DNA from: Thermodesulfobacteriota bacterium
GTDB lineage: Bacteria > Desulfobacterota > Desulfobacteria > Desulfobacterales > SURF-7
Direction: 5' to 3'
Length of the DNA stretch: 64,000 nt
NCBI GenBank assembly: GCA_049320885.1
Contig: JBMORA010000028.1
Span: forward strand, 1-64,000
Positions within the stretch are counted from its first letter, which is position 1. Every line of letters begins with the position of its first letter. A program made the position numbers and the translations under genes. Shown piece after piece: positions 22,840 through 36,477 of the stretch. The notes under the pieces are model-generated. The model searched no databases. It worked only from the letters and a program-made list of their open reading frames with translations, and was not told the origin of the DNA.

Positions 22840-24132
22840 TCAGGAGGATGTACGCCCCTCGGCCTTTTTCTGGGGGTTGGCAGGCTTCAGATACGCCCCC
22901 CAATAACTCATGCCCACGAACACCGCCCCGCCGATGATGTTGCCGATGGTCACCGGCAGGAGGTTTTTCCACAGACAGTTGACCCAGGTCAGGCCCTCGG
23001 CGTTGATGGCCTGAATGGCGGCCAGTTCCCCCCAGCTCTTGATGAAGATGCCGGTGGGAATGAAATACATGTTGGCCACGCAGTGTTCGAAGCCGATGGC
23101 GACGAACCCCATGATGGGAAAGAAAATGGCGAAAATTTTACCGACGGTCTGCCGGGCCGCCAGGGCCATCCATACCGCCAGGCAGACCAGCCAGTTGCAG
23201 CCGATGCCCCGGAAAAGGGCTTCGCTGAATCCCAGGGTTGATTTTTTCAGGGCGATGGTGACCGCGGCGGCCCCCAAGGCGCCGTCTCCGGTTTTCCACA
23301 GGCCGGAAAAATAAAACAGCAGGGCGATAACCAGCGACCCCACGAAATTGGCCAGATACACCACGGACCAGCGTTTGAGCATGTTGCCGATGGTGATTTC
23401 CCGGCTCAAGACACTGGAGACCATGAGATTGTTGCCGGTGAAGAGTTCGGCCCCGGCAATGACCACCAGCATCAGTCCGAGACTGAAAGCGGCGCCGGCC
23501 ATGACCTTGGACAAGCCGACGCCGGTGATGGGCGCCATGTCGAAGGTGACGCTGGTGGACAGCAGGCCGCCGAAGCCGATATAAGAGCCGGCCAGGACCC
23601 CCAATACCGTAACCGTCAGCCAGGGGGAAGTCACCTTGCCCACGCCGATGGTGGACGCCACCGTTTCCGCGATGGTCTTGGGTGCCTTGTCTTCCATGCC
23701 CGGAACCGGAAACTGCAGGGATTTGATGATGTTTTCAAAGCGGCCCAGAACCTGTTTTTCCGCCGTCAATTTGCGCTGGATCGCCCTTGTGACCGTGGCG
23801 TATATTTCTTCCGGAGTGAACGGCTTGGCCACATAATCCATGGCGCCCCGCTTCATGGCCTCGGTGGCCCGCCCCACGGAAGGAAAACCGCTGATCATCA
23901 CCATGGCGGATTCCGGCGATCTTCGATGGAGTTCCTCGATCACGTCGAGACCGTCGAAACCGGGCATTTTCCAGTCGCACAGAATCACATCGAAGGCGGA
24001 ATCCCCGGCGAGCCGGAGCCCTTCCTGGGGACTCGATGTGATCACCACGTTGAAACCTTCCGCGCTGAAGATCCTCCGACAGGAATTCAAGACGATTTCA
24101 TCGTCATCAATGATCAGCATGGTCTGGGTCAT
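22840..24132 (-). CDS. Receiver domain fused to formate/nitrite transporter (FNT) channel
   Basis: REC (IIDDD, LCDWKMP, SG, KPF) in frame with FNT motifs GAELFTGN, GIGCNWLVCLA, GFEHCVANM. Confidence 0.92.
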   Translation of the reverse strand: MTQTMLIIDDDEIVLNSCRRIFSAEGFNVVITSSPQEGLRLAGDSAFDVILCDWKMPGFDGLDVIEELHRRSPESAMVMISGFPSVGRATEAMKRGAMDYVAKPFTPEEIYATVTRAIQRKLTAEKQVLGRFENIIKSLQFPVPGMEDKAPKTIAETVASTIGVGKVTSPWLTVTVLGVLAGSYIGFGGLLSTSVTFDMAPITGVGLSKVMAGAAFSLGLMLVVIAGAELFTGNNLMVSSVLSREITIGNMLKRWSVVYLANFVGSLVIALLFYFSGLWKTGDGALGAAAVTIALKKSTLGFSEALFRGIGCNWLVCLAVWMALAARQTVGKIFAIFFPIMGFVAIGFEHCVANMYFIPTGIFIKSWGELAAIQAINAEGLTWVNCLWKNLLPVTIGNIIGGAVFVGMSYWGAYLKPANPQKKAEGRTSS

Positions 24133-24140
24133 GGGGCCTC

Positions 24141-24767
24141 CTACTGTTTCATGTGCTTCTTCCCTTCCGTCAGCCAGTGCTTCTGTTCCGGCTTGATCAT
24201 GCCCAGCTGATCCTCCAGCCAGTCGACATCCCCGGTGACGATCGCCAGCTTTTCATTGGCGGTCAATTTGTACGGGCCCAGGGCCTCGCCCCCCTCTTCA
24301 AAGACCTTCCGGGCAAAATCCGGCTCCGCAGCTCCTTTCATCAGCACCTTCCGGACTTCCTCGGCATGAATCAGGGTCTGCTCTTCCGGAACGCTGCCGG
24401 TGGCGGCTTCGATGGCCGATACCACAATCCGGATCAGTTCTTCCGGATCGAACGGTTTTTCAATGTAGTTGACGGCCCCCAGTTTCATGGCCTGGACCGC
24501 CGAAGCCACGCTGGCATAACCCGTTATGATCACCACGGGCATCTGCGGCTTCTGACGTTTGACATCCCGGACAACCGTCAACCCATCCACGTCCGGCATC
24601 CGGATATCAGTGAGAACGATATCGTAGGATTCCTCGGCAGCCATGCGAATCCCGGCCCTGGCGCTCAGGCTGACATCCACCTCGAATCCTTCCTCCGTCA
24701 GCACCCTGCGGATACTCTCCAGGACGATCGCCTCGTCATCAATGGCCAACACTTTTTTCCCCTTCAT
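24141..24767 (-). CDS. Response regulator with small helical C-terminal domain
   Basis: REC LTDIRMP/KPF; C-terminal DFARKVFEEGGEAL..YKLT..EKLAIVTGD. Confidence 0.88.
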   Translation of the reverse strand: MKGKKVLAIDDEAIVLESIRRVLTEEGFEVDVSLSARAGIRMAAEESYDIVLTDIRMPDVDGLTVVRDVKRQKPQMPVVIITGYASVASAVQAMKLGAVNYIEKPFDPEELIRIVVSAIEAATGSVPEEQTLIHAEEVRKVLMKGAAEPDFARKVFEEGGEALGPYKLTANEKLAIVTGDVDWLEDQLGMIKPEQKHWLTEGKKHMKQ

Positions 24768-24848: not shown

Positions 24849-25475
24849 TCACCATATCTCGGCACCCAGTCGGGCCTCCAGCCAGACTTTCTGATCGGGG
24901 CTGAGGGCGCCGACATGCGCTTCTATCCAGGCGATGTCGCCGGTGATGATGGCCAGTTTCTCCGGACCGGTGAGCTGGAAGCCGTCCAGCGCATCCGCGC
25001 CGTTGTTCAACAACTCGCGCCTGAAATCGAAATCCACGGCACCCAGTTCGAGGACCTTGAGAACTTCCTCCTTGTGGATGATGGCCTGCTCCTCCGGCTG
25101 CTCCTCGGCGGCCCGATGGATCGAACCGCTAACGGCCTTGACCAGCTCATCCGGACTGAACGGTTTTTCAATGTAATCCGCGGCGCCGAGTTTCATGGCC
25201 TGAACCGCGGAACGCACCGAGGCATAGCCGGTGATGATCATCACCGGCAAGGACGGTTTGGCGCGCTTGACGTCCCGCAGCACAATCAAACCGCCGATAT
25301 CCGGCATGCGGATATCGGTCAACACCAGATCGTAGGCCTGGCTGATCGCCTTTTCAATGCCTTCCTTTCCGCCGAGGCATTGATCCACCTCATAGTTTTC
25401 CGCCATCAGAATCTTCCGGACACTGTCCAGTACAACCTGCTCATCGTCAATGACCAGCACTCTTTGCTTACTCAT
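24849..25475 (-). CDS. Response regulator with small helical C-terminal domain (paralog of the preceding gene)
   Basis: REC LTDIRMP/KPF; C-terminal DFRRELLNNGADAL..FQLT..EKLAIITGD. Confidence 0.88.
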   Translation of the reverse strand: MSKQRVLVIDDEQVVLDSVRKILMAENYEVDQCLGGKEGIEKAISQAYDLVLTDIRMPDIGGLIVLRDVKRAKPSLPVMIITGYASVRSAVQAMKLGAADYIEKPFSPDELVKAVSGSIHRAAEEQPEEQAIIHKEEVLKVLELGAVDFDFRRELLNNGADALDGFQLTGPEKLAIITGDIAWIEAHVGALSPDQKVWLEARLGAEIW

Positions 25476-25837
25476 GGGGCCTCCTTTTGTATCGCCTGCC
25501 GGACGCTTTTCAGCAGTTCATCCGGGGTAAATGGTTTGGCTATGAAATTGCTCGCGCCCATGTTCAGGGCTTCCGCGATCATGTCTTCCGTATTCAATCC
25601 GCTCATCAGGATCACCGGGATATCGACCTGCCGCTCTCTCAGTTCGCGCAACAAATACAATCCGTCATGCACCGGCATTTTGATGTCCACCAAAAAAGCG
25701 GTGGGTTTTTCCGCCTCCAGGGCTTTCAAAGCCTCCAGGGCCGATGCGACCACCAAGACCTCGAAACCCTCCGGCTCCAACACCCGCCGGCAGCTTTCGA
25801 GCACAATCCGTTCGTCGTCAACCACCAGGATTTTCAT
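25472..25837 (-). CDS. Single-domain response regulator
   Basis: MKILVVDDE, VDIKMP, SG, KPF. Confidence 0.88.
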   Translation of the reverse strand: MKILVVDDERIVLESCRRVLEPEGFEVLVVASALEALKALEAEKPTAFLVDIKMPVHDGLYLLRELRERQVDIPVILMSGLNTEDMIAEALNMGASNFIAKPFTPDELLKSVRQAIQKEAP

Positions 25838-27803
25838 GTTCTTCCACCTGTCTTTCAATGGGTAGCCATATAAAAAAGCTGGAACCCTTGCCGACTTCGC
25901 TCTGCACCCGGATATTGCCGCCGTGCTCCTTGACGATCCCGTAGGAAACCGACAGTCCCAATCCGGTTCCCTTCCCGACTTCCTTGGTGGAAAAAAAGGG
26001 ATCGAACAGTTTGTTCATGTGTTCGGGAGGGATCCCGCAGCCGGTGTCCGTAATGGTGATTTCCACACCCCGGTGGCCGGTATCGCTGGCGGACAGAGCC
26101 GCCGCCGTGGTCACGGTGATTTTGTCGGAAGGCTTGGTGGCATCCAGGGCATTGATCAGGATGTTCAACAACACGCTCTGGATCTGACTGCGATCCAACA
26201 CCAGTGTCGGCAGCTCCTGGCCGGGATGGAACTGGATGCTCACCCCTTTGAGCAGGGCCTGGTTTTCCATCAGTTTGATGGACGCCTCCACCAGCCGGTT
26301 GACATCGCTCTCTTCGGGGTCGAGCCGGGTCTGCCGGGAAAAATCCAGCAACCCCTTGACGATCTTGCGGACCCTTTCGGTGGATTCGGCGATCACCTGG
26401 AGATCCGTGCGCATATCGTCCGGCAGATCCTTCCGCCGCAGAAGCATGTGGGTGTAGGTCAGCACCCCGGTAAGGGGGTTGTTGATTTCGTGTCCCACCC
26501 CCGCCGCCAGACGACCCACCGTGGCCTGCTTCTCGGAATGGATGATCTGGCTGCGGCTCTCGTTGCGGCGGCGCTTCATGGAACCGACCATCTCCAGAAA
26601 AGTCGTCTGCAATACGGCAATTTCCATGTCCTTGGAAATCGAACCGATATCCGGGGAAACGTTTCCCTCGGAGACTTCCCGGCTCGCCCGGATCAACCGG
26701 TGAATGGGGCCCAGAATCCGCCCGGCCAGGAAGAACCCCATGACCACGGCGATAAGGCCGCCCATCCCCATGGACAGGACGAAATACAAAATGAATTTGT
26801 GTTGAATCCCGGAGTAATTGGACTCCGGCACGGCGATGGCGAGCATCCCGACCCGTTTCCCGCCGATATCCTCCAGGGGGCTGTAGGTGGCGATGCACCG
26901 CTCCGTCACGCAGAAATGTCTGGCGGTCCATGGTTTCCCCAGGCCGAGCACCTGATCCCGCACCTCATCCGTCACCATTGTTCCCACGGCGCGTCCGCCG
27001 GTTTCATCCATCATGTTGGTCGCTACCCGGATTGTATCGAACAATATGCTTGCGGTGGGCGGCTTGGCTCCGGCCTGGATCCCGGCCCCCAGGAAGGATT
27101 TTTGCACCAGGTCCACGATATCGGTGCGCTGATGGAGAACCACACCGCCATAAAGCACCCCCAGCAGTTCCCCGCCGTCGTGATTGGCGTAAACGGGGAT
27201 GCCGGCGGCCACGGCCAGGCAGGCTTTGGTCCCTTCGGCAGCCGTATTTTTCCCGTCATCAGCGGCAGACGTGTAGAACTGGATCCGTCCGGCCAGTTCC
27301 GGATTTTCGGTGGTCAGGAAATCCCGCGTCAGCACCACCGTGCCGGCAACGGGCAACCGGCTTGCCCTGACCGCCTGAACAACCGGGTTTTCGGCCTGCC
27401 GCTGCCCCTCCGGAATCAGCTTGGGCGTCGGTCGACTGATGGATCGGCCGTCGGGCAGCACGATCCCGGCAAAATCCAGATCGGCATGGATCGAAAGACG
27501 CTGCAGACGTTCATATAATTCCTCCGGATTGGCTTCCGTGAAGGCGTTGCGAAAGCCTGGTCCCAGACTGGTGATCTCCAGGGCCAGTTTAATGAAACGG
27601 GTGCGGGAACGATAGGCGTCGTCCGCCGCGTTCAAAGCCAGACCGACCTGGCTGGCGGCCTCCTGGACAACCCGGTTGTACAGCAGATAACCGGCGATTA
27701 ACAACGACAGGCCGCCCACCAGAAAAGAAACGAGCAGGAAACCAATGACCAGTTGAAAGCGCGTGGAATGCAACATGCCGTTTTTCCCATATTTATCAAT
27801 CAT
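25818..27803 (-). CDS. Membrane sensor histidine kinase (periplasmic Cache-like, HAMP, HisKA, HATPase)
   Basis: Two TM helices; RVATN..GRAVGT Cache motif; HEINNPL, DTGCGI, FDPFFSTK, GTGLGL. Confidence 0.92.
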   Translation of the reverse strand: MIDKYGKNGMLHSTRFQLVIGFLLVSFLVGGLSLLIAGYLLYNRVVQEAASQVGLALNAADDAYRSRTRFIKLALEITSLGPGFRNAFTEANPEELYERLQRLSIHADLDFAGIVLPDGRSISRPTPKLIPEGQRQAENPVVQAVRASRLPVAGTVVLTRDFLTTENPELAGRIQFYTSAADDGKNTAAEGTKACLAVAAGIPVYANHDGGELLGVLYGGVVLHQRTDIVDLVQKSFLGAGIQAGAKPPTASILFDTIRVATNMMDETGGRAVGTMVTDEVRDQVLGLGKPWTARHFCVTERCIATYSPLEDIGGKRVGMLAIAVPESNYSGIQHKFILYFVLSMGMGGLIAVVMGFFLAGRILGPIHRLIRASREVSEGNVSPDIGSISKDMEIAVLQTTFLEMVGSMKRRRNESRSQIIHSEKQATVGRLAAGVGHEINNPLTGVLTYTHMLLRRKDLPDDMRTDLQVIAESTERVRKIVKGLLDFSRQTRLDPEESDVNRLVEASIKLMENQALLKGVSIQFHPGQELPTLVLDRSQIQSVLLNILINALDATKPSDKITVTTAAALSASDTGHRGVEITITDTGCGIPPEHMNKLFDPFFSTKEVGKGTGLGLSVSYGIVKEHGGNIRVQSEVGKGSSFFIWLPIERQVEEHENPGG

Positions 27804-27866: not shown

Positions 27867-28046
27867 TCGGCCCGAATAATATTATATATATGTTTTTATT
27901 GGTTATTTATACAAATGAAGGCCATCGGGCAGGTCCGGGGAAAATCCACCGCCGCCCCGGGGTCTGATAAGGTTTTTTTCAAGGTGTAAAAAAAACCGAC
28001 GCCCCCCGGTTTTCCGGAAAATCCCGGGCTGTTCCGGAGGGTGTTG

Positions 28047-30575
28047 TTACAGCATCCCCCGGATGGTCGCAGCCGCCCTTTCCGCCGAGGGCAGCATGGC
28101 GTTTTCCAGATTCTTGGCGTAGGGAATGGGACAGTCCGGCGCGCTGATCTTGACCGGCGCGGTTTTCAAGAGGCTGAATCCCGCCAGGGCCACCCGGGAG
28201 ATGACCTCGGAGCCGATGCTGTTGCTGAAATGGGCTTCCTCCAAGACGGCCAAGCGCCCGGTACGGGCCACGGACCCAAGAATGCTTTCGGTATCCAGGG
28301 GATAGAGGGTCACCAGATCGATGATTTCGGCCTCCACTCCTTCCCGTTCCAGGATCCCGGCCACGCTTTTGGCAATGCCCACTCCCAGGAGGTAGGTGAC
28401 GATGGTGACATCCCGCCCCGGCCGGACGGTCCGGGCCTTGCCGATGGGCAGGGTGTATTCCCCGGCGGGCGCTTTTCCGGATTCGGCGTACAGGAGCTTA
28501 TGCTCGAAGAACAGCACCGGGTTGTCCGAACGGATGGCCGATGCCAGCAACCCTTTGGCGGTGAAGGCGTCACTCGGCGCAACCACCATCAAACCGGGAA
28601 TGCCGCAAAAGAATTTTTCCATGGACTGGGAATGCTGGGCCGCCATGCCGATGCCGCTGCCCAGGGGGGTCCGAATCACCAGGGGAACCGACACCTGCCC
28701 GCCGGTCATGTAGCGCAATTTGGCCGCCTGATTGACGATGGGATCCATGCAGCAGGTCAAAAAATCGGCGAAGAGGATTTCCGCCACCGGCCGCATTCCG
28801 GTCATGGCCGCGCCCACGGCGCCGCCCACGAAAGCGTTCTCCGATATGGGGGTATCGATGATCCGGCCGGTTCCGAAACGATCCACCAGGCCTTCGGTGA
28901 CATTGAAATACCCTCCTAGGGTCACGTCCTCGCCCCACAGGAAAACGCGCTCATCCCGATCCATTTCCTGGGCCAGGGCCATATTGATGGCCTGGGATAC
29001 CGAAAATTCCGCCGCGTCGTCCGGCACCTGGAAACTCCCGGAAAAGAGGGCGCGGTCCTCGGGACTGTAAATGTCCCGGCTCAGTTCCCCGGGTTGGGGT
29101 TCGGGGGCCTGTTCGGCGAACCGGACCGCCGCCGCGATGGTTTCCCTGACGGTTCCGCGGAGCCCCTCCAGTTCCTCCGGTGACATCCCGCCGCCCACCA
29201 GCTCCTGCTCCAGGCGCCGGACGGGATCTGCTTTGGCATGCAGGGCCTTCTCTTCCGGACCGCGGTATTGCTGCTGATCCCCTTCCATATGGCCGTGCCA
29301 GCGGTAGGTCATCAGCTCCACCAGCCGCGGCCGACCGTCGGCCCGCATCCCGTCGATGATCCGGCCCACTTCCGCGAATACGGTGCGGGCATCGTTGCCG
29401 TCGAACCGGTGGGACGCGACGCCATAGGCCTCGGCCCTGCGAAACACCTCGGTGACCGCCGAGTGCCGCTCGATGGCGGTGAATTCCCCGTAGCGGTTGT
29501 TTTCCACCACCACCAGCACCGGCAGGTTGAATACGGCGATCATGTTCATGGCTTCGTGGAACATGCCTTGATTGACGGACCCGTCGCCGGCGATGACCAC
29601 TGAAATATCGTCGCTCTTGCGATAATGCTTGATGGAAAAACCGGCCCCCAGGGCCAGAAGGTAACCGGCGCCGACGATCCCGTTGGCCCCCAGCACGCCG
29701 ATCCGGCCGTCGGTGACATGCATGGAGCCGCCCTTGCCCTTGCAAAGGCCCTCGGCCTTGCCGTAAATTTCCGCCATCATCCGCTGGACGTCGGCGCCCT
29801 TGGCGATGATATGCCCGTGCCCGCGATGGGTGGTATTCAGGTAGTCGCTGTCCCGCAACTGCATACAGACTCCGGCGGCCACGGCTTCCTGTCCGATGGA
29901 CAGATGGATGGCCTCGGTGGGCAGACGGCCGGCCTGAAAGGCCTCCGCCAGATGCTGCTCGAAATAGCGGATGGTCAGCATGGCGGTCAGGAGGTCCACG
30001 GGGCCGACGTCTTTTCGCCCCCCCGCCCTTCCCGGACCGGACGCCGGTGTACCATGGCCGGCAAATTCCAGGGGGAATTCCGGAATCCGCTCCGGCTGGA
30101 CAGTTCCGCGTCGTTTGCCGAAAAACCATCCCAAACGTCGTCTGGCCTTGCGTTGCGGCGCCGCCGGCAACAGATCCGCCCTTCCCAGCTCCCGCAGAAT
30201 CCGGGGATAGAGGACAAAAGCCGGTTTCAAGGCCGGAACCAGTTTCAGGGCCTTTTGCACCGAGCCCTTGGCCACGATTTTCCGCGTGGCCAGCGCCAGG
30301 GGCACATTCAGTTGCTCCATCCAGAACAGATGGGCGGTTTCGGAGGAGAGAATCATTTCCACGTCGAAATCCCGGTTGTCCGGGTCGGCCCAGAAGTAAC
30401 GCGGCGTTTCGCCGCTGATATCGATCATCAGGGCCGTGGGGAAATCCGTATACCGGAACTTGGCGATGAGGCGGGAGCCGGAAACCGACCGAACGATTTC
30501 CGGGGTGGCGAAAATGGCCTCCCACAGAGCCGACAGCACCCGGACCAATTCTTCCTGGTTGTGAAACGCACCCAT
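28047..30575 (-). CDS. SCP2-like domain fused to ThDP-dependent E1 alpha and beta (acetoin/2-oxoacid dehydrogenase family)
   Basis: N-terminal FW...LNVPLALA.RKI..KG (SCP2-like); HLSIGQEA, THRGHGH, GDG...NN, TYRWHGH; DTPISE, AAQHSQS. Confidence 0.88.
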   Translation of the reverse strand: MGAFHNQEELVRVLSALWEAIFATPEIVRSVSGSRLIAKFRYTDFPTALMIDISGETPRYFWADPDNRDFDVEMILSSETAHLFWMEQLNVPLALATRKIVAKGSVQKALKLVPALKPAFVLYPRILRELGRADLLPAAPQRKARRRLGWFFGKRRGTVQPERIPEFPLEFAGHGTPASGPGRAGGRKDVGPVDLLTAMLTIRYFEQHLAEAFQAGRLPTEAIHLSIGQEAVAAGVCMQLRDSDYLNTTHRGHGHIIAKGADVQRMMAEIYGKAEGLCKGKGGSMHVTDGRIGVLGANGIVGAGYLLALGAGFSIKHYRKSDDISVVIAGDGSVNQGMFHEAMNMIAVFNLPVLVVVENNRYGEFTAIERHSAVTEVFRRAEAYGVASHRFDGNDARTVFAEVGRIIDGMRADGRPRLVELMTYRWHGHMEGDQQQYRGPEEKALHAKADPVRRLEQELVGGGMSPEELEGLRGTVRETIAAAVRFAEQAPEPQPGELSRDIYSPEDRALFSGSFQVPDDAAEFSVSQAINMALAQEMDRDERVFLWGEDVTLGGYFNVTEGLVDRFGTGRIIDTPISENAFVGGAVGAAMTGMRPVAEILFADFLTCCMDPIVNQAAKLRYMTGGQVSVPLVIRTPLGSGIGMAAQHSQSMEKFFCGIPGLMVVAPSDAFTAKGLLASAIRSDNPVLFFEHKLLYAESGKAPAGEYTLPIGKARTVRPGRDVTIVTYLLGVGIAKSVAGILEREGVEAEIIDLVTLYPLDTESILGSVARTGRLAVLEEAHFSNSIGSEVISRVALAGFSLLKTAPVKISAPDCPIPYAKNLENAMLPSAERAAATIRGML

Positions 30576-30585
30576 GAACGACCTC

Positions 30586-31578
30586 CTACCATTTGGCGTA
30601 ATGATCCTCGGCCCAGGCCGGGCAGTTGTCCAGCCGCACCTGTTCGCCGGCGTCGGTGGTCAGGCGGCCTTCCAGGGTGCCCATGAGCTGGGTGAAACGG
30701 GAGGCGATGAGCCCCACGTGGATTTTCTCGCTCCGCTCGCGTTCCGGATGAAACAACAGCTCCACCTTGCCGTCCTGGGAAGCCATCCGCCACGGTCGAT
30801 ACAAATCCCGGGAGTCGAAAACGAAATTGACCGTGTCGACCTTGGTCATGACGCCGTCCAGCCAGAAGGCATTCTCGGTGAAACCGGTTTCGTTCACCCC
30901 GCAGGCCAGGTTCAGACCGAAAGTCCGGCCGTCCTTAAGGGTGGCGGCGGTGGCGGCCCAGTTCCAACAGGTGTGTTTGCGCATGAACCCTCCGGTCCAG
31001 TCCATCAGGCCCATATATTCCGGCGACGCCACCGCATGGGTTTTGCCGTTGCAGAAAATCGTGCCTTTCACGGGGATGGGGCTGGTCTTCTGGGTGTACA
31101 CCCAGCCGCGGTATCCGGCCCGGGTGCAGATCCGCAAGGGTCTGGTCTTTTCCAGGGCTGTTTCGATCTCAAGCCGGATGTTCCGGCCCTCGGCCTCCAT
31201 CCGGTTGCCCTTCATGGAGATCCGGAAATCCCCGGACTCAAAGACGCTGTCCACCTGCGCGGGATTCAGGCGGATGCAGGTCTTGCCGCCGGGAAGGGCC
31301 AGCTTCTTGGTTTCGATCACCTCTTTTTTCCCACGGTCATAGAGATAGAAAAACCCGTTGGTGACGAGTTTGAGGTTCACCACGGCCATGCCGGCCATCA
31401 ATTCCGGCCCCATCAACCCGAAAAAATGAAACTGGTTGAACTTGAGGGACTTGAGAAATCCGGGCACCGGCAATCCCATGGGAGTGCGCAGGCTATAATC
31501 GCCGAAATTGAGTTCCCCGATCACGTCATCGTAAATGCCGAATGCAATGGTGCCGTCCTGCTCGACCAGTTTGCGCAT
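30586..31578 (-). CDS. DUF2804 family protein
   Basis: W.YTQK, DW..G......WNWA, GLNLACGVNETG.TEN..W.DG, S.F.Q..G, EDHYAKW. Confidence 0.8.
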   Translation of the reverse strand: MRKLVEQDGTIAFGIYDDVIGELNFGDYSLRTPMGLPVPGFLKSLKFNQFHFFGLMGPELMAGMAVVNLKLVTNGFFYLYDRGKKEVIETKKLALPGGKTCIRLNPAQVDSVFESGDFRISMKGNRMEAEGRNIRLEIETALEKTRPLRICTRAGYRGWVYTQKTSPIPVKGTIFCNGKTHAVASPEYMGLMDWTGGFMRKHTCWNWAATAATLKDGRTFGLNLACGVNETGFTENAFWLDGVMTKVDTVNFVFDSRDLYRPWRMASQDGKVELLFHPERERSEKIHVGLIASRFTQLMGTLEGRLTTDAGEQVRLDNCPAWAEDHYAKW

Positions 31579-31672: not shown

Positions 31673-32158
31673 TTAAAAAAAGAACCGGATTCCGATCCCG
31701 CCTTCCAGATCGAAATCCGTATCCGGCGTGAGATTCAATACCGGCGCGATTTCGGCGAAAGCGCCCAGGGGCAGATCGGCGAATTGATATTCGACTCCGG
31801 CCGGAATGCGCACCCCGAATTTATCGTCCTTCTTGTCCCGGCTCAGGAACCGGAGCCCGGCGCCGAAATACACGGGCAGCCGGCCCTTGGGAACCCGAAT
31901 CAGATGATACAGGTGATACAGACCAGTGCCATACACATGCAATTGATCGTCGCTGCTGGTGGACCAGCCGGCGCCGCCGTCGATGGAAATGGCCTGATCG
32001 ATATTGAATTTCACCGTTATTCCCGTGGGGACTCCCGCCACCACGCCGATGCCGAATTGCTTTTGTGGCCCCGTTGTGTTCCGCGAAGACCGGGCCCATG
32101 CGGTCGGCGGGGAGAAGCTGGCGGAAACGAGCAACAGAAGGAGAATCCATTGATACAT
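31673..32158 (-). CDS. Small outer-membrane beta-barrel protein
   Basis: Signal peptide; FGIG...G.PTGIT.K; GVRIP.G; terminal GGIGIRFFF. Confidence 0.7.
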   Translation of the reverse strand: MYQWILLLLLVSASFSPPTAWARSSRNTTGPQKQFGIGVVAGVPTGITVKFNIDQAISIDGGAGWSTSSDDQLHVYGTGLYHLYHLIRVPKGRLPVYFGAGLRFLSRDKKDDKFGVRIPAGVEYQFADLPLGAFAEIAPVLNLTPDTDFDLEGGIGIRFFF

Positions 32159-32283
32159 GCGGGGCTCCTTTTATCAGTGAGGTTGTATTGACTCTGCCAA
32201 TAAATGAAACCGGATGAAGAATCAAGTGTTTTCAGCCGGAATTTGTCTTGCAATCCACTCCGGATGGGATACATTGCCCGGTC

Positions 32284-33159
32284 ATGAAGCGCGCCGTCTG
32301 GTTTCCCGTCTATTGTCTGATCCTGGCCATGGTTCTCTGGGCCAGCTCTTTCATCGCCCTGAAACTGGCCTTTCGCGCCTATCACCCCATGGTGGTCATC
32401 TTCGGGCGCATGCTGACGGCCAGTATCTTTTTTGCATTTCTATGGCCGCGGTTCCGGTCCATTCCCTTTAACCGAAGGGATGCGAAATTCATCCTGCTGA
32501 TGGCCTTCTGCGAGCCCTGTCTGTATTTTCTGTTCGAGGCCAAGGCCATCCAGAACACAACGGCCTCCCAGGCCGGCATGATCACCGCCATACTGCCCCT
32601 GATGGTGGCCGTCGCCGCGCATTTCGTCCTGAAAGAGCGCATCGGCGGGCGTACCCTGGCCGGTTTCTTCCTGGCCATTTTCGGGGCCTGCTGGCTCAGC
32701 GTCGGCGGCCGGCCCTCGGCGGACGCCCCCAATCCCGTGTTGGGAAATTTTTTGGAATTCATGGCCATGGTATGCGCCACCGGCTATACCATTACCCTGA
32801 AGCGGTTGACGCCGGTGTATCCCCCCCTTTTCCTCACCGGCATCCAGGCGTTTGTCGGCACTCTTTTTTTTCTGCCTTTTTTGTTCCTGCCCGCCACCAC
32901 CCTTCCCGATTCCCTGGAACCCATCCCGGCAGCGGCGATCTTCTATCTGGGGGCCGTCATCACGCTGGGAGCCTACGGGCTCTATAACTTCGGCGTCAGC
33001 CGGATACCCGCCAGCCAGGCTTCGGCCTTTGTCAATCTGATTCCGGTATTTACGGTCTTACTGGGCTGGCTGATCCTGGGCGAAACCCTCACCATGAGCC
33101 AGTGCGCGGCGGCCGTGGTGGTGTTCATGGGCGTCATGATGAGTCAAAAATGGGGTTAG
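32284..33159 (+). CDS. DMT/EamA family transporter
   Basis: LWASSF, LKE, AS.ASAFVNLIPVF..LLG.LILGE; about 10 TM helices. Confidence 0.88.
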   Translation: MKRAVWFPVYCLILAMVLWASSFIALKLAFRAYHPMVVIFGRMLTASIFFAFLWPRFRSIPFNRRDAKFILLMAFCEPCLYFLFEAKAIQNTTASQAGMITAILPLMVAVAAHFVLKERIGGRTLAGFFLAIFGACWLSVGGRPSADAPNPVLGNFLEFMAMVCATGYTITLKRLTPVYPPLFLTGIQAFVGTLFFLPFLFLPATTLPDSLEPIPAAAIFYLGAVITLGAYGLYNFGVSRIPASQASAFVNLIPVFTVLLGWLILGETLTMSQCAAAVVVFMGVMMSQKWG

Positions 33160-33824
33160 ATGCCGGGCAAATTCTCCACCAGCCAGTCGAAAAAAAGCAC
33201 GAACAGGCCGATGGGCGCCAGCAGCCCCAGCACGGAGCCGATGACGTAATCCCGGAAACGGATATTCGTCAGCGCCATGGCGTAATTGAGGGACGGATGC
33301 AGCAATAAGAAAGTCCGGAGGAAAATGATGCTGCGGACGGGCTGTTGATCCAGTCGGGACAGGATCCTGCGGATCCAGGGTTTTTCAATGTCGCTGAACG
33401 GACGGCCGCCGATGAGCCGCATCAATTGAAAGCTCACGCAGATGGCGACGGTCCCCCCGACCATGGCCAGGATAAAACCCGTGGTGCGACCGTACACATA
33501 GACCCCGGCGGCCACGAAAAGCAGACCAAAGACATGGCATATCTCACCGATGACGAACAGCAGGATGTACAGGAGGTATCCCCAGGCGCCGGCATCGGCG
33601 ATGGTTTTCCGGAGGGTCCGCAGGTTGAAGAACTCCTGTATTCCCAGATAATGGGCCAGGATCAACAGGAGGGCAACCGTCAGAACGACGGCGACCAGAC
33701 GGATATGCCGATACGAATCGGAAGAAAGACGGGATGTTCGATGGCCGCTCACGTTGAAACCGCTAACAGAAAAAGCGGAGAAAAGCAACTCTCCGCTTTC
33801 TGTCCGTCGGCCGTCGGCCGGCAT
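33156..33824 (-). CDS. DedA/TVP38 (VTT domain) membrane protein
   Basis: Hydrophobic; FLR.......LNYAMALT.IRFRDY..GS.LG; start uncertain. Confidence 0.75.
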   Translation of the reverse strand: MPADGRRTESGELLFSAFSVSGFNVSGHRTSRLSSDSYRHIRLVAVVLTVALLLILAHYLGIQEFFNLRTLRKTIADAGAWGYLLYILLFVIGEICHVFGLLFVAAGVYVYGRTTGFILAMVGGTVAICVSFQLMRLIGGRPFSDIEKPWIRRILSRLDQQPVRSIIFLRTFLLLHPSLNYAMALTNIRFRDYVIGSVLGLLAPIGLFVLFFDWLVENLPGI

Positions 33825-35412: not shown

Positions 35413-36477
35413 TTACCCGCGGGCAATCGGTTTGTCGCTGCGTTGTCGGTGCAATTCCGCCACCCGCCGATCCATGATGGCCCGCCAGAGCGGGGGAACG
35501 GCCGCCAGCAGCACCATGCCGGCGTAGCCCGTGGGCAGCTGGGGGCTTTCCTCGAAATGCCGCAAGGCCTGATATCGTCTTCCCGGTTTGTAATGATGGT
35601 CGGAATGCCGCTGGAGATTAAACAGAAACCGATTGGTCAGCCAGTTGCTGGAATTCCAGGAATGCAGCGGCGTCACGGGCTCATGGCGGTTTCCCGGGAT
35701 TTCCCTTCTAAAAAGACCGTAATGTTCCACGTAATTCACTATTTCCAAGAGTGAAATCGCGATGAAAGCCTGTAAAATAAAAAATATCAACCCTTTCCAT
35801 CCGAACATGATCGCGACGAACAAGATCAAAACAGATTGCAGCAGAAGACCGGAGGCGACCCGATTCCGAAGATTCCAGGGGCCCAGGCCGTTCCGGCGAA
35901 GCCGCTCGGCTTCGAATCGAAAGGCGCTGCCGAACCCCCCGAAAACCGTTCGCGGCCAGAAGGCATAAAAAGATTCTCCGAAACGGGCGGTCGCCGGGTC
36001 GGCCTGGGTGGCCACACGGCGATGATGTCCCACCACATGCTCCAATCCCCAGTGCATGTAACAAACCGTGCACAGCATGATTTTGGAAAGGAGCGGCTCC
36101 ATTTTTTCATTGACCCGGTGGGCCAGTTCATGGGCGACATTGATCCCCATCACGCCCGAGGAAACACCGACGGAAGCCGCCATCCCGCAATATTCCAGAA
36201 CCGAAAAACCGCCGCCGGAAGCCAGGCGGCAGGCCCAGAACACCAGCAGGACCTGCAGCGGGGCGCATATCCAGGTGACTATCCGATATCCTACCCTTGT
36301 TTCCAGTTGCCGGAGTTCATCCCCACTCGGGTTGTTCGTTTCCCTTCCGATGATGACATCCAGGATCGGAACCACGCCGAACACCATCAGCGGTGTCAAA
36401 AAAGTATACCAGCCACCCAGGACGGTTCCGGCAATAACACTTATCGGCACAAGATAAACTAATGTAAACGACCACAT
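35413..36477 (-). CDS. alkB: Alkane 1-monooxygenase (membrane di-iron hydroxylase)
   Basis: His boxes AHELAH, EHVVGHH, NYVEHYG, LQRHSDHH; DPATARFGES; PQLPTGY; RBS GGGGAG. Confidence 0.92.
   Translation of the reverse strand: MWSFTLVYLVPISVIAGTVLGGWYTFLTPLMVFGVVPILDVIIGRETNNPSGDELRQLETRVGYRIVTWICAPLQVLLVFWACRLASGGGFSVLEYCGMAASVGVSSGVMGINVAHELAHRVNEKMEPLLSKIMLCTVCYMHWGLEHVVGHHRRVATQADPATARFGESFYAFWPRTVFGGFGSAFRFEAERLRRNGLGPWNLRNRVASGLLLQSVLILFVAIMFGWKGLIFFILQAFIAISLLEIVNYVEHYGLFRREIPGNRHEPVTPLHSWNSSNWLTNRFLFNLQRHSDHHYKPGRRYQALRHFEESPQLPTGYAGMVLLAAVPPLWRAIMDRRVAELHRQRSDKPIARG

Follow-up and report, generated by a model that had tools for sequence, protein, structure and literature searches.

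An SCP2–E1 alpha–E1 beta fusion family of anaerobic bacteria, separated from lipoyl E2 and probably acting on lipophilic carbonyl compounds

Gene pair and domain architecture

We analysed a 64,000-nucleotide stretch of contig JBMORA010000028.1 from a Thermodesulfobacteriota bacterium (hereafter the window) and identified a reverse-strand gene (28047..30575) whose product, P0001, joins in one chain of 842 amino acids (aa) an SCP2-fold domain and both subunits of a thiamine diphosphate (ThDP)-dependent E1 enzyme. The assignment draws on the list of open reading frames (ORFs), on Pfam and on the family alignment. From the N-terminus, and all on the reverse strand, the protein consists of the SCP2-fold domain (residues 1-135, 30171..30575; Pfam, AlphaFold2 and Foldseek), a disordered linker (residues 136-195, 29991..30170; sequence, alignments and the predicted local distance difference test, pLDDT), E1 alpha (residues 196-510, 29046..29990; Pfam E1_dh and a Protein Data Bank (PDB) match) and E1 beta with its Transket_pyr and Transketolase_C domains (residues 520-842, 28050..29018; Pfam and PDB matches). 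The ThDP motif GDG...NN lies within E1 alpha (residues 330-360, 29496-29588, reverse strand; from the alignment). The first-pass annotation of this DNA had described an 842-aa ORF with an SCP2-like domain, a basic linker and both E1 subunits, and the ORF list, the Pfam matches and the fold agree with it on each part.

Upstream of the fusion gene, on the same strand, is a gene for a DUF2804 protein (P0002, 330 aa, 30586..31578; Pfam, AlphaFold2 and Foldseek). The 10-bp gap between the two genes (30576..30585, as first described) reads TAG-GAGGtcgttc-ATG, with GGAGG located 6 nt ahead of the ATG, so that the Shine-Dalgarno site of the fusion gene adjoins the DUF2804 stop codon. Terminator-like hairpins, found by a consensus scan only, flank the pair on the reverse strand: one of 13 pairs with a T run lies ahead of the DUF2804 gene, at the end of an upstream ORF resembling an outer-membrane protein (OMP) (31686..31719), and one with a weak tail lies 26 nt past the fusion stop codon (28002..28021). 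Given the short gap with its Shine-Dalgarno site and the flanking hairpins, the two genes look like one bicistronic, co-transcribed unit.

As judged from its predicted structure, the N-terminus of the fusion is a real SCP2 fold. Scanned alone, it scores 21.4 bits on PF02036, and 21 of 26 family N-termini match this profile at E<=0.01 (best 2e-07). In an alignment of the first ~200 residues of these 26 family members (A1), residues 1-135 are strongly conserved, with 16 positions invariant in all 26 sequences, including H82, F84, W85, G104, K108, P114 and Y123. The AlphaFold2 model has block-mean pLDDT values of 80-97 across residues 1-140, and essentially all Foldseek matches of this model to the PDB at E<=0.001 are SCP2 proteins or domains. 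The best is 6z1w (E 1.8e-06, template modelling (TM) score 0.73 by target; TM up to 0.75 overall), and the others include human SCP-2L/MFE-2, UbiJ, SCP2 of yeast and insects and the C-terminal domains of alkylsulfatases. By sequence profile, the N-terminus matched SCP2 entries of the PDB only weakly (E 0.58-0.91). The SCP2 identity that had been proposed from the sequence, with a profile or structure check suggested, is thus confirmed by the Pfam matches across the family, the AlphaFold2 model and Foldseek. MFE-2 SCP-2L (1ikt, 6z1w), UbiJ (6h6n) and the alkylsulfatases SdsA1 and Pisa1 (2cfu, 2yhe) share the alpha/beta fold with TM 0.6-0.75 by target, and in MFE-2 and the alkylsulfatases the SCP2 domain is likewise fused to an enzyme for a hydrophobic substrate. 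Identity to these known domains is nevertheless just 9-22%, and the fusion family has its own invariant H82, F84, W85, K108, P114 and Y123.

The linker varies across the family in A1, although P165 is invariant both there and in A3, an alignment of 34 family members. Its segment R142-R156 has 8 basic residues out of 15 plus W150-F151-F152, and pLDDT drops below 50 at residues 152-160 and 167-191, which are modelled as disordered. We speculate that this basic and aromatic linker may hold the enzyme at the membrane. A complex prediction between the SCP2 domain (1-138) and the E1 core (196-842) scored 0.00, which is evidence neither way on contact between them.

The E1 core matches Pfam E1_dh (residues 199-495, 2.3e-63, 214.4 bits against a cut-off of 22), Transket_pyr (residues 524-696, 3e-44, 151.2 bits against 27) and Transketolase_C (residues 712-832, 2.4e-26, 92.5 bits against 25.9). 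The ThDP motif, G330-D331-G332...N359-N360, is invariant in 34/34 family members, as is E549, which we take to be the cofactor-activating Glu of the beta part; both are common to the unfused relatives, and the first-pass annotation had noted the motif as intact. Among E1 components of pyruvate dehydrogenase (PDH; human 3exf/1ni4, G. stearothermophilus 1w85) and of branched-chain dehydrogenases (1dtw, 1qs0), human PDH E1 alpha (3exf_A) is matched by the alpha part (4.4e-51) and several E1 beta chains by the beta part (1e-72 to 1e-78; 1ik6_A 2.3e-78, 1w85_B 6.7e-74). PDH and branched-chain E1s work only with lipoyl-E2 and E3, whereas the fusion has no such partner at its locus or in several of the genomes that carry it. 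P0001 passes the NCBIfam subfamily model PRK09212 (PDH E1 beta; 329.6 bits against a cut-off of 321). It does not reach the PDH E1 equivalogs TIGR03182 (alpha; 293.9 against 393.85) and NF008854 (beta; 332.6 against 454) or the dxs model (82.5 bits against 466), and in the same NCBIfam scan it gave no match to the PigD model.

The fusion family and its separation from E2

Among 8000 candidates scored, 1657 proteins are homologous to the fusion at E<=0.001. The 120 matches listed are 809-887 aa long, cover 96-100% of the query and are 61-82% identical to it; in A3, mean column identity is 73%. In their source records the homologues are named pyruvate or 2-oxoisovalerate dehydrogenase E1, apart from one 'SCP2 sterol-binding domain-containing protein'. 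On these sequence comparisons, the fusion is a large, highly conserved and uncharacterised family.

A scan of species-representative genomes gave 597 relatives; the 80 retained for analysis represent 78 loci (35 fusion, 43 unfused). Matches that start in the SCP2 domain come from Desulfobacterales, Desulfatiglandaceae, Nitrospiraceae, Caldithrix, Rhodothermales, Spirochaetes, Acidobacteriota, Anaerolineales/Chloroflexota, Polyangiales and Zymogenaceae. Records named Desulfonema limicola, Caldithrix abyssi and Desulforapulum, which are candidates for cultured carriers, are among those of the scan. Of 301 genomes sampled evenly from the phylum of the window, only 6 have a full-length fused copy and 7 more have fragments or split copies; with so few carriers, the distribution of the fusion is patchy. 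The fusion frame is unusually long at two loci, 1194 aa in a spirochaete (L025:6978-10562) and 916 aa in a member of the Nitrospiraceae (L009:7791-10541); these could be N-terminal extensions or merely reflect upstream in-frame start codons.

The nearest relatives that lack an SCP2 domain are encoded as neighbouring E1 alpha and E1 beta genes, for the most part in Bacillales and Lactobacillales (loci L043-L085). These pairs are 43-49% identical to the fusion over residues 195-842 in all but one case, and we take them to be of the acetoin dehydrogenase AcoA/AcoB type. They share the fold and the ThDP motif with the fusion but differ in being two genes, in having no SCP2 domain and in having an E2 gene downstream. 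Comparison of the fused proteins with 40 unfused pairs shows 154 positions that do not vary in either group, among them the ThDP motif, E549, H429 and H648, and 32 positions that are fixed differently. Several of the latter replace a bulky aromatic residue by a smaller or non-aromatic one in the fused group (F222A, Y226S, F430M, W553L, F624T and Y653E), with the reverse change in V556Y; A222 aligns with the Phe of the GFCHL motif in human PDH E1 alpha.

A FastTree phylogeny of the E1 core groups all 29 full-length fused sequences in a single clade with support 1.0, apart from the 40 unfused pairs (627 columns; fused loci shorter than 830 aa and three unfused loci without both subunits were excluded). 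Acetoin-dehydrogenase-type E1s, which the first-pass annotation had brought in as enzymes that can cleave acyloins and diketones, are represented by the presumed Aco-type pairs, the nearest E2-linked relatives found; the fusion does not group within these pairs in the tree. Within the fused clade, L023, L026, L032, L034, L035, L036 and L041 constitute a divergent subclade, which we call B.

No E2 gene lies within the window around the fusion/DUF2804 pair. The genome from which the window comes is 98.2% complete and contains one E2 only, with Biotin_lipoyl, E3_binding and 2-oxoacid_dh domains, encoded on another contig (C2) directly after a sucA-type 2-oxoglutarate dehydrogenase E1 (E1o). Beyond the fusion and E1o, the genome has just two weak E1_dh matches. 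When this E2 was used as a tblastn probe, an E2-like gene was found within the flanks of 0/35 fusion loci, whereas in 40/43 unfused loci E2 lies immediately downstream of E1 beta. The three unfused loci without E2 (L057, L058 and L079) are all shorter, at 9.6-10.6 kb.

We searched ten fusion-bearing genomes, some of whose E2- or LipA-negative members are incomplete, for the E2 catalytic domain (PF00198) and for lipoyl synthase (LipA, TIGR00510). A PF00198 match is absent from G012 (99% complete), G091 (93%), G033 (85%, one contig; the same genome as G302) and G304, and G125 and G181 have partial matches of 25-51 bits. Full E2s were found in G000, G305, G301 and G303. The sole E2 of G303 (C4:281321-282008) was matched as two adjoining pieces (profile positions 3-150 and 148-231) and may be frameshifted. 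LipA exceeds its cut-off in five genomes (G000, G181, G301, G303 and G305) and is missing or far below it in the other five (G125, G012, G091, G033 and G304), so half of the carriers appear to lack the means to make lipoyl protein. The independence of the fusion enzyme from E2 is well supported, because of the contrast between the fused and unfused loci and because carrier genomes exist without E2 or lipoyl synthase. The first-pass annotation had remarked on the missing adjacent E2 and suspected an enzyme that does not need one, and both points stand on these counts.

Partner genes and proposed function

P0002 matches DUF2804 (PF10974; 1.6e-59, 202.3 bits) with its residues 3-330 on profile positions 9-339 of 339. 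Its AlphaFold2 model (pLDDT 92) is an AttH/CrtC-like double beta-barrel, and Foldseek relates it to AttH (2ich, 8.5e-11), 25-phosphosteroid lyase (9fzn, 4.9e-09), kievitone hydratase (7a0q, 3.2e-07) and the fungal Diels-Alderases Fsa2, CghA and Phm7, with TM scores of about 0.45-0.55 across the best matches. AttH/CrtC-like barrels hydrate or eliminate on lipophilic isoprenoid or steroid substrates. AttH, the phosphosteroid lyase, kievitone hydratase and Fsa2/CghA thus have the double beta-barrel in common with DUF2804, and their known substrates are lipophilic; identity to DUF2804 is just 7-14%, and no sequence relative of P0002 was found in the PDB. In the literature searched, the only paper to mention DUF2804 (PMC8151288) places PA3342, a DUF2804 gene, among genes induced by the glycerolipid regulator GliR.

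The coupling with DUF2804 that the first-pass annotation had pointed out is real in the window and at L008, the closest relative, where DUF2804 lies beside the fusion and both proteins are 82% identical to those described here. Two further close pairs come from contigs of matching length (226465 and 9915), which suggests that fusion and DUF2804 share a contig there as well. As a general feature of the family the coupling fails, and we rejected DUF2804 as a general fusion partner: a tblastn search against the 78 related loci matched only L008, and 0/80 metagenome loci that encode DUF2804 relatives (26-59% identity; 71 with >=500 nt downstream) contain an E1-like gene. G012, G091 and G181 do have DUF2804 genes, on contigs other than that of the fusion.

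Neighbouring genes were called by codon usage trained on the fusion gene of each locus, and at most three genes per side were scanned with Pfam, for 36 loci in total (the 35 fusion loci and the window). The most frequent neighbour is a class-III aminotransferase, present in 9/36 loci (L010, L011, L012, L017, L029, L031, L033, L037 and L042). On NCBIfam models, those of L010 and L029 score 235-351 bits for PigE and 233-399 bits for putrescine aminotransferase (PRK11522), all below the cut-offs; for L017, L031 and L033 the similarity is to glutamate-1-semialdehyde aminomutase and GntE, also below the cut-offs. A second SCP2-domain gene occurs in 6/36 loci, free-standing in L010-L012 and as the C-terminus of a 251-298-aa protein in L017, L033 and L042. 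Crotonases are encoded beside the fusion in L029, L033 and L042, a long-chain-type acyl-CoA ligase in L029 and an SRPBCC lipid-binding protein in L041. Oxidoreductase neighbours comprise short-chain dehydrogenases/reductases (SDRs; L015 and L020, with a 3-beta-hydroxysteroid dehydrogenase/epimerase-type SDR in L034), a methylglyoxal-reductase-like aldo-keto reductase (AKR; L040), a zinc alcohol dehydrogenase (ADH; L038) and an aldehyde:ferredoxin oxidoreductase (AOR; L030). Glyoxalase_4 proteins (L015 and L021) and a ThDP enzyme resembling acetolactate synthase or 2-hydroxyacyl-CoA lyase (L016 and L017) are also found. In L025, genes for a hemerythrin, an alpha/beta hydrolase and an acetate kinase-PduL fusion come after the SCP2-E1 fusion.

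At three loci of subclade B the fusion stands in a different gene setting. At L036:257-5766 it follows genes for a TetR regulator, a radical-SAM/SPASM protein and a 372-aa protein, and at L023:6181-10535 it follows a SPASM-like protein and a 346-aa protein 43% identical to that of L036. At L032:5326-10562, TetR is ahead of the fusion and a radical-SAM gene lies on the opposite strand; one upstream frame there looks radical-SAM-like by eye. The upstream protein of the first two loci (L036:2031-3149 and L023:6919-7959) has no Pfam match even at E<=1, and we rejected it as a DUF2804 member (hhalign probability <=0.4%). An ESM-Atlas feature search, which we treat as a lead only, places it near DUF6670, CrtC and Diels-Alderase clusters (0.94-0.96). 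This hints that a barrel of the DUF2804 superfamily precedes the fusion in a second lineage. The upstream ORFs of L032 were compared with this putative barrel protein and rejected as counterparts.

Given the analyses presented above, we suggest that the fusion is probably an undescribed enzyme for a lipophilic carbonyl compound in anaerobic bacteria. As to its activity, we tentatively favour, with a little less than even confidence, a lipoyl-independent ThDP lyase, decarboxylase or carboligase for a hydrophobic acyloin, diketone or 2-oxo acid. Under this proposal, a single-chain E1 of the heterotetramer type would descend from E2-linked alpha/beta pairs of the acetoin/pyruvate type, would have gained SCP2 as an N-terminal lipid-binding domain, attached by a basic tether that probably seeks the membrane, and would have left the lipoyl-E2/E3 system. 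The SCP2 domain would take up or hold a hydrophobic carbonyl compound, for example an alpha-hydroxyketone, 1,2-diketone or 2-oxo acid with a long chain, and the ThDP site would cleave the C-C bond beside the carbonyl or perform the reverse carboligation. Instead of being oxidized onto lipoamide, the hydroxyalkyl-ThDP would be released as an aldehyde, or the acyl partner would be passed to water or CoA. The aldehyde or ketone product may then be handled by the neighbour of each lineage (aminotransferase, SDR, AKR, ADH or AOR); in the lineage of the window, the DUF2804 barrel probably acts on the same lipid one step earlier. The hydrophobic substrate, the non-oxidative chemistry, the membrane tether and this order of steps are what we infer from the analyses. 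The C-C cleavage of a long-chain acyloin, 2-oxo acid or steroid that the first-pass annotation had put forward likewise has the standing of a proposal.

Chemically, redox-neutral roles are the simplest, since lipoamide would be unavailable as oxidant. Established ThDP chemistry offers several: an acyloin could be converted to two aldehydes, a 1,2-diketone could be split hydrolytically or thiolytically, a 2-oxo acid could lose CO2 without oxidation to leave an aldehyde, or the enzyme could run in the reverse direction as a carboligase. DXS and the sugar-branching or C2-transfer E1 pairs likewise use an E1-type ThDP core without oxidative transfer to lipoyl-E2, as proposed for the fusion; these enzymes, by contrast, lack a lipid-binding domain and use sugar phosphates, which are hydrophilic. 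An aldehyde or ketone product would agree with the AOR, SDR, AKR, ADH, glyoxalase-fold and class-III aminotransferase neighbours, and a hydrophobic substrate with the extra SCP2 proteins, acyl-CoA ligase, crotonases, SRPBCC protein and AttH-like barrel.

Several observations weigh against this proposal. In the whole 842-aa protein, the PF02036 match (residues 37-117) is below threshold, at 18.3 bits against a cut-off of 21.3, and SCP2 domains can also bind acyl-CoA or act as scaffolds. The group-specific substitutions may have widened the substrate pocket, a conjecture read from the alignment. Lipoyl chemistry is still compatible with the sequence, because H429 and H648, presumably the His residues that classical E1s use for reductive acylation of lipoamide, are retained, and the genome of the window and three other carriers possess both E2 and LipA. 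The gene context is heterogeneous, with even the commonest neighbour in only 9/36 loci, and many neighbours (transporters, regulators, peptidase- and arginase-type genes) are uninformative on lipids. DUF2804 itself is a lineage-specific partner, confined to the narrow lineage of the window.

A more specific form of the proposal seems to us unlikely, yet deserves statement. The fusion would be the first E1-family enzyme to act directly on a membrane lipid, a membrane-tethered, lipoyl-independent ThDP lyase that would split or form long-chain alpha-hydroxyketones or alpha-diketones, with the SCP2 domain extracting the lipid and AttH/CrtC-like barrels preparing it. Candidate substrates would be CAI-1/LAI-1-type signals or diketones from transaminated alpha-amino-ketone lipids (keto-sphingoid bases), and candidate barrels would be DUF2804 here and the different, Pfam-less barrel of the TetR/radical-SAM cassette in subclade B. 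If true, this would define a new anaerobic route of lipid or signal turnover.

A biosynthetic carboligase is, in our judgement, rather unlikely. As in DXS or PigD, pyruvate or another 2-oxo acid would be decarboxylated and a lipophilic aldehyde or enal would accept the acyl-anion equivalent, and the class-III aminotransferase would aminate the product to an amino-lipid or alkaloid-like compound. The evidence for E2-independence serves this scheme as well as it serves a lyase, and the L010 and L029 aminotransferases score on PigE and PRK11522, if below cut-offs. PigE acts on a medium-chain aldehyde in partnership with a ThDP enzyme. Among E1-family enzymes, DXS is an established case of E2-independent C-C bond formation, and sugar-branching E1 pairs are a proposed one. 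However, the aminotransferase is found in a quarter of the loci only (9/36), other biosynthetic genes (polyketide synthase, non-ribosomal peptide synthetase and acyl carrier protein) do not recur, and P0001 lacks a match to the PigD model. High conservation combined with a patchy spread over phyla resembles a self-contained catabolic or housekeeping step instead.

We consider it improbable that the fusion is a soluble, non-lipid 2-oxo acid decarboxylase of amine or amino-acid catabolism, in which transamination would be followed by CO2 removal and the SCP2 domain would bind acyl-CoA or regulate or oligomerize the enzyme. The aminotransferases would fit this role, as would the amino-acid permeases, peptide ATP-binding cassette and tripartite ATP-independent periplasmic transporters, arginase- or amidinotransferase-type genes and M24 peptidase near several fusion loci. 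However, class-III aminotransferases usually use omega-amines and yield aldehydes, not 2-oxo acids; the enzyme is accompanied in its gene clusters by SCP2 proteins of three separate kinds; and the SCP2 domain, with its 16 invariant positions in 26 sequences, is conserved like the catalytic core. Finally, an ordinary oxidative E1 that acts on acetoin, pyruvate or branched-chain 2-oxo acids and borrows a distant 2-oxoglutarate dehydrogenase-type E2/E3, with SCP2 as an accessory, would agree with the E2 (with lipoyl and E3-binding domains) and LipA of the genome of the window, the retained catalytic His residues and the PRK09212 score (329.6 against 321), but is very unlikely given that this sole E2 sits beside its own sucA-type E1o, that E2 is found at 0/35 fusion loci against 40/43 of the nearest unfused E1s, that among the ten carriers four have no E2 match, two have weak partial ones and five have no LipA, and that both the alpha and beta PDH E1 equivalog cut-offs are missed.

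In textbooks, E1 components belong to lipoyl-dependent multienzyme complexes. The E1 core of the fusion family is complete, occurs in genomes without E2 and lipoyl synthase and is in every case joined to a lipid-carrier domain, which suggests that anaerobes apply ThDP chemistry to hydrophobic substrates. In the literature searched, we found no paper on an SCP2-ThDP E1 fusion and no description of an E1-superfamily enzyme with such chemistry; the superfamily is known, the architecture is new and the role is probably new. The family is abundant in sediment, sludge and the subsurface, in Desulfobacterota, Nitrospirota, Chloroflexota, Acidobacteriota, Calditrichota and Spirochaetota, and its routine mis-annotation as pyruvate or 2-oxoisovalerate dehydrogenase distorts metabolic reconstructions of the organisms that carry it. 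It may also supply carboligases or lyases for bulky substrates.

Other genes around the pair in the window

Envelope and lipid genes surround the fusion/DUF2804 pair. These encode a small OMP-beta-barrel-like protein (31673-32158, reverse strand), a divergently transcribed EamA exporter (32248-33159, forward strand), a DedA/VTT protein (33156-33824, reverse strand) and a fatty-acid desaturase (35413-36477, reverse strand). EamA also adjoins the fusion in L008 and L012.

On the other side, after the fusion gene, the reverse strand encodes a Cache/HAMP histidine kinase (25818-27803) and, downstream of it, tandem 208-aa receiver-domain proteins (24141-24767 and 24849-25475) with C-terminal halves that received no assignment. 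The order of kinase and tandem receiver genes after the fusion is kept in L008. The next reverse-strand gene (22840-24132) encodes a 430-aa protein with a receiver domain (residues 6-114, 6.1e-26) fused to a formate/nitrite transporter (residues 160-411, 1.6e-80). This arrangement, which looks unusual, implies a channel gated directly by phosphorylation, and it also follows the fusion in L008.

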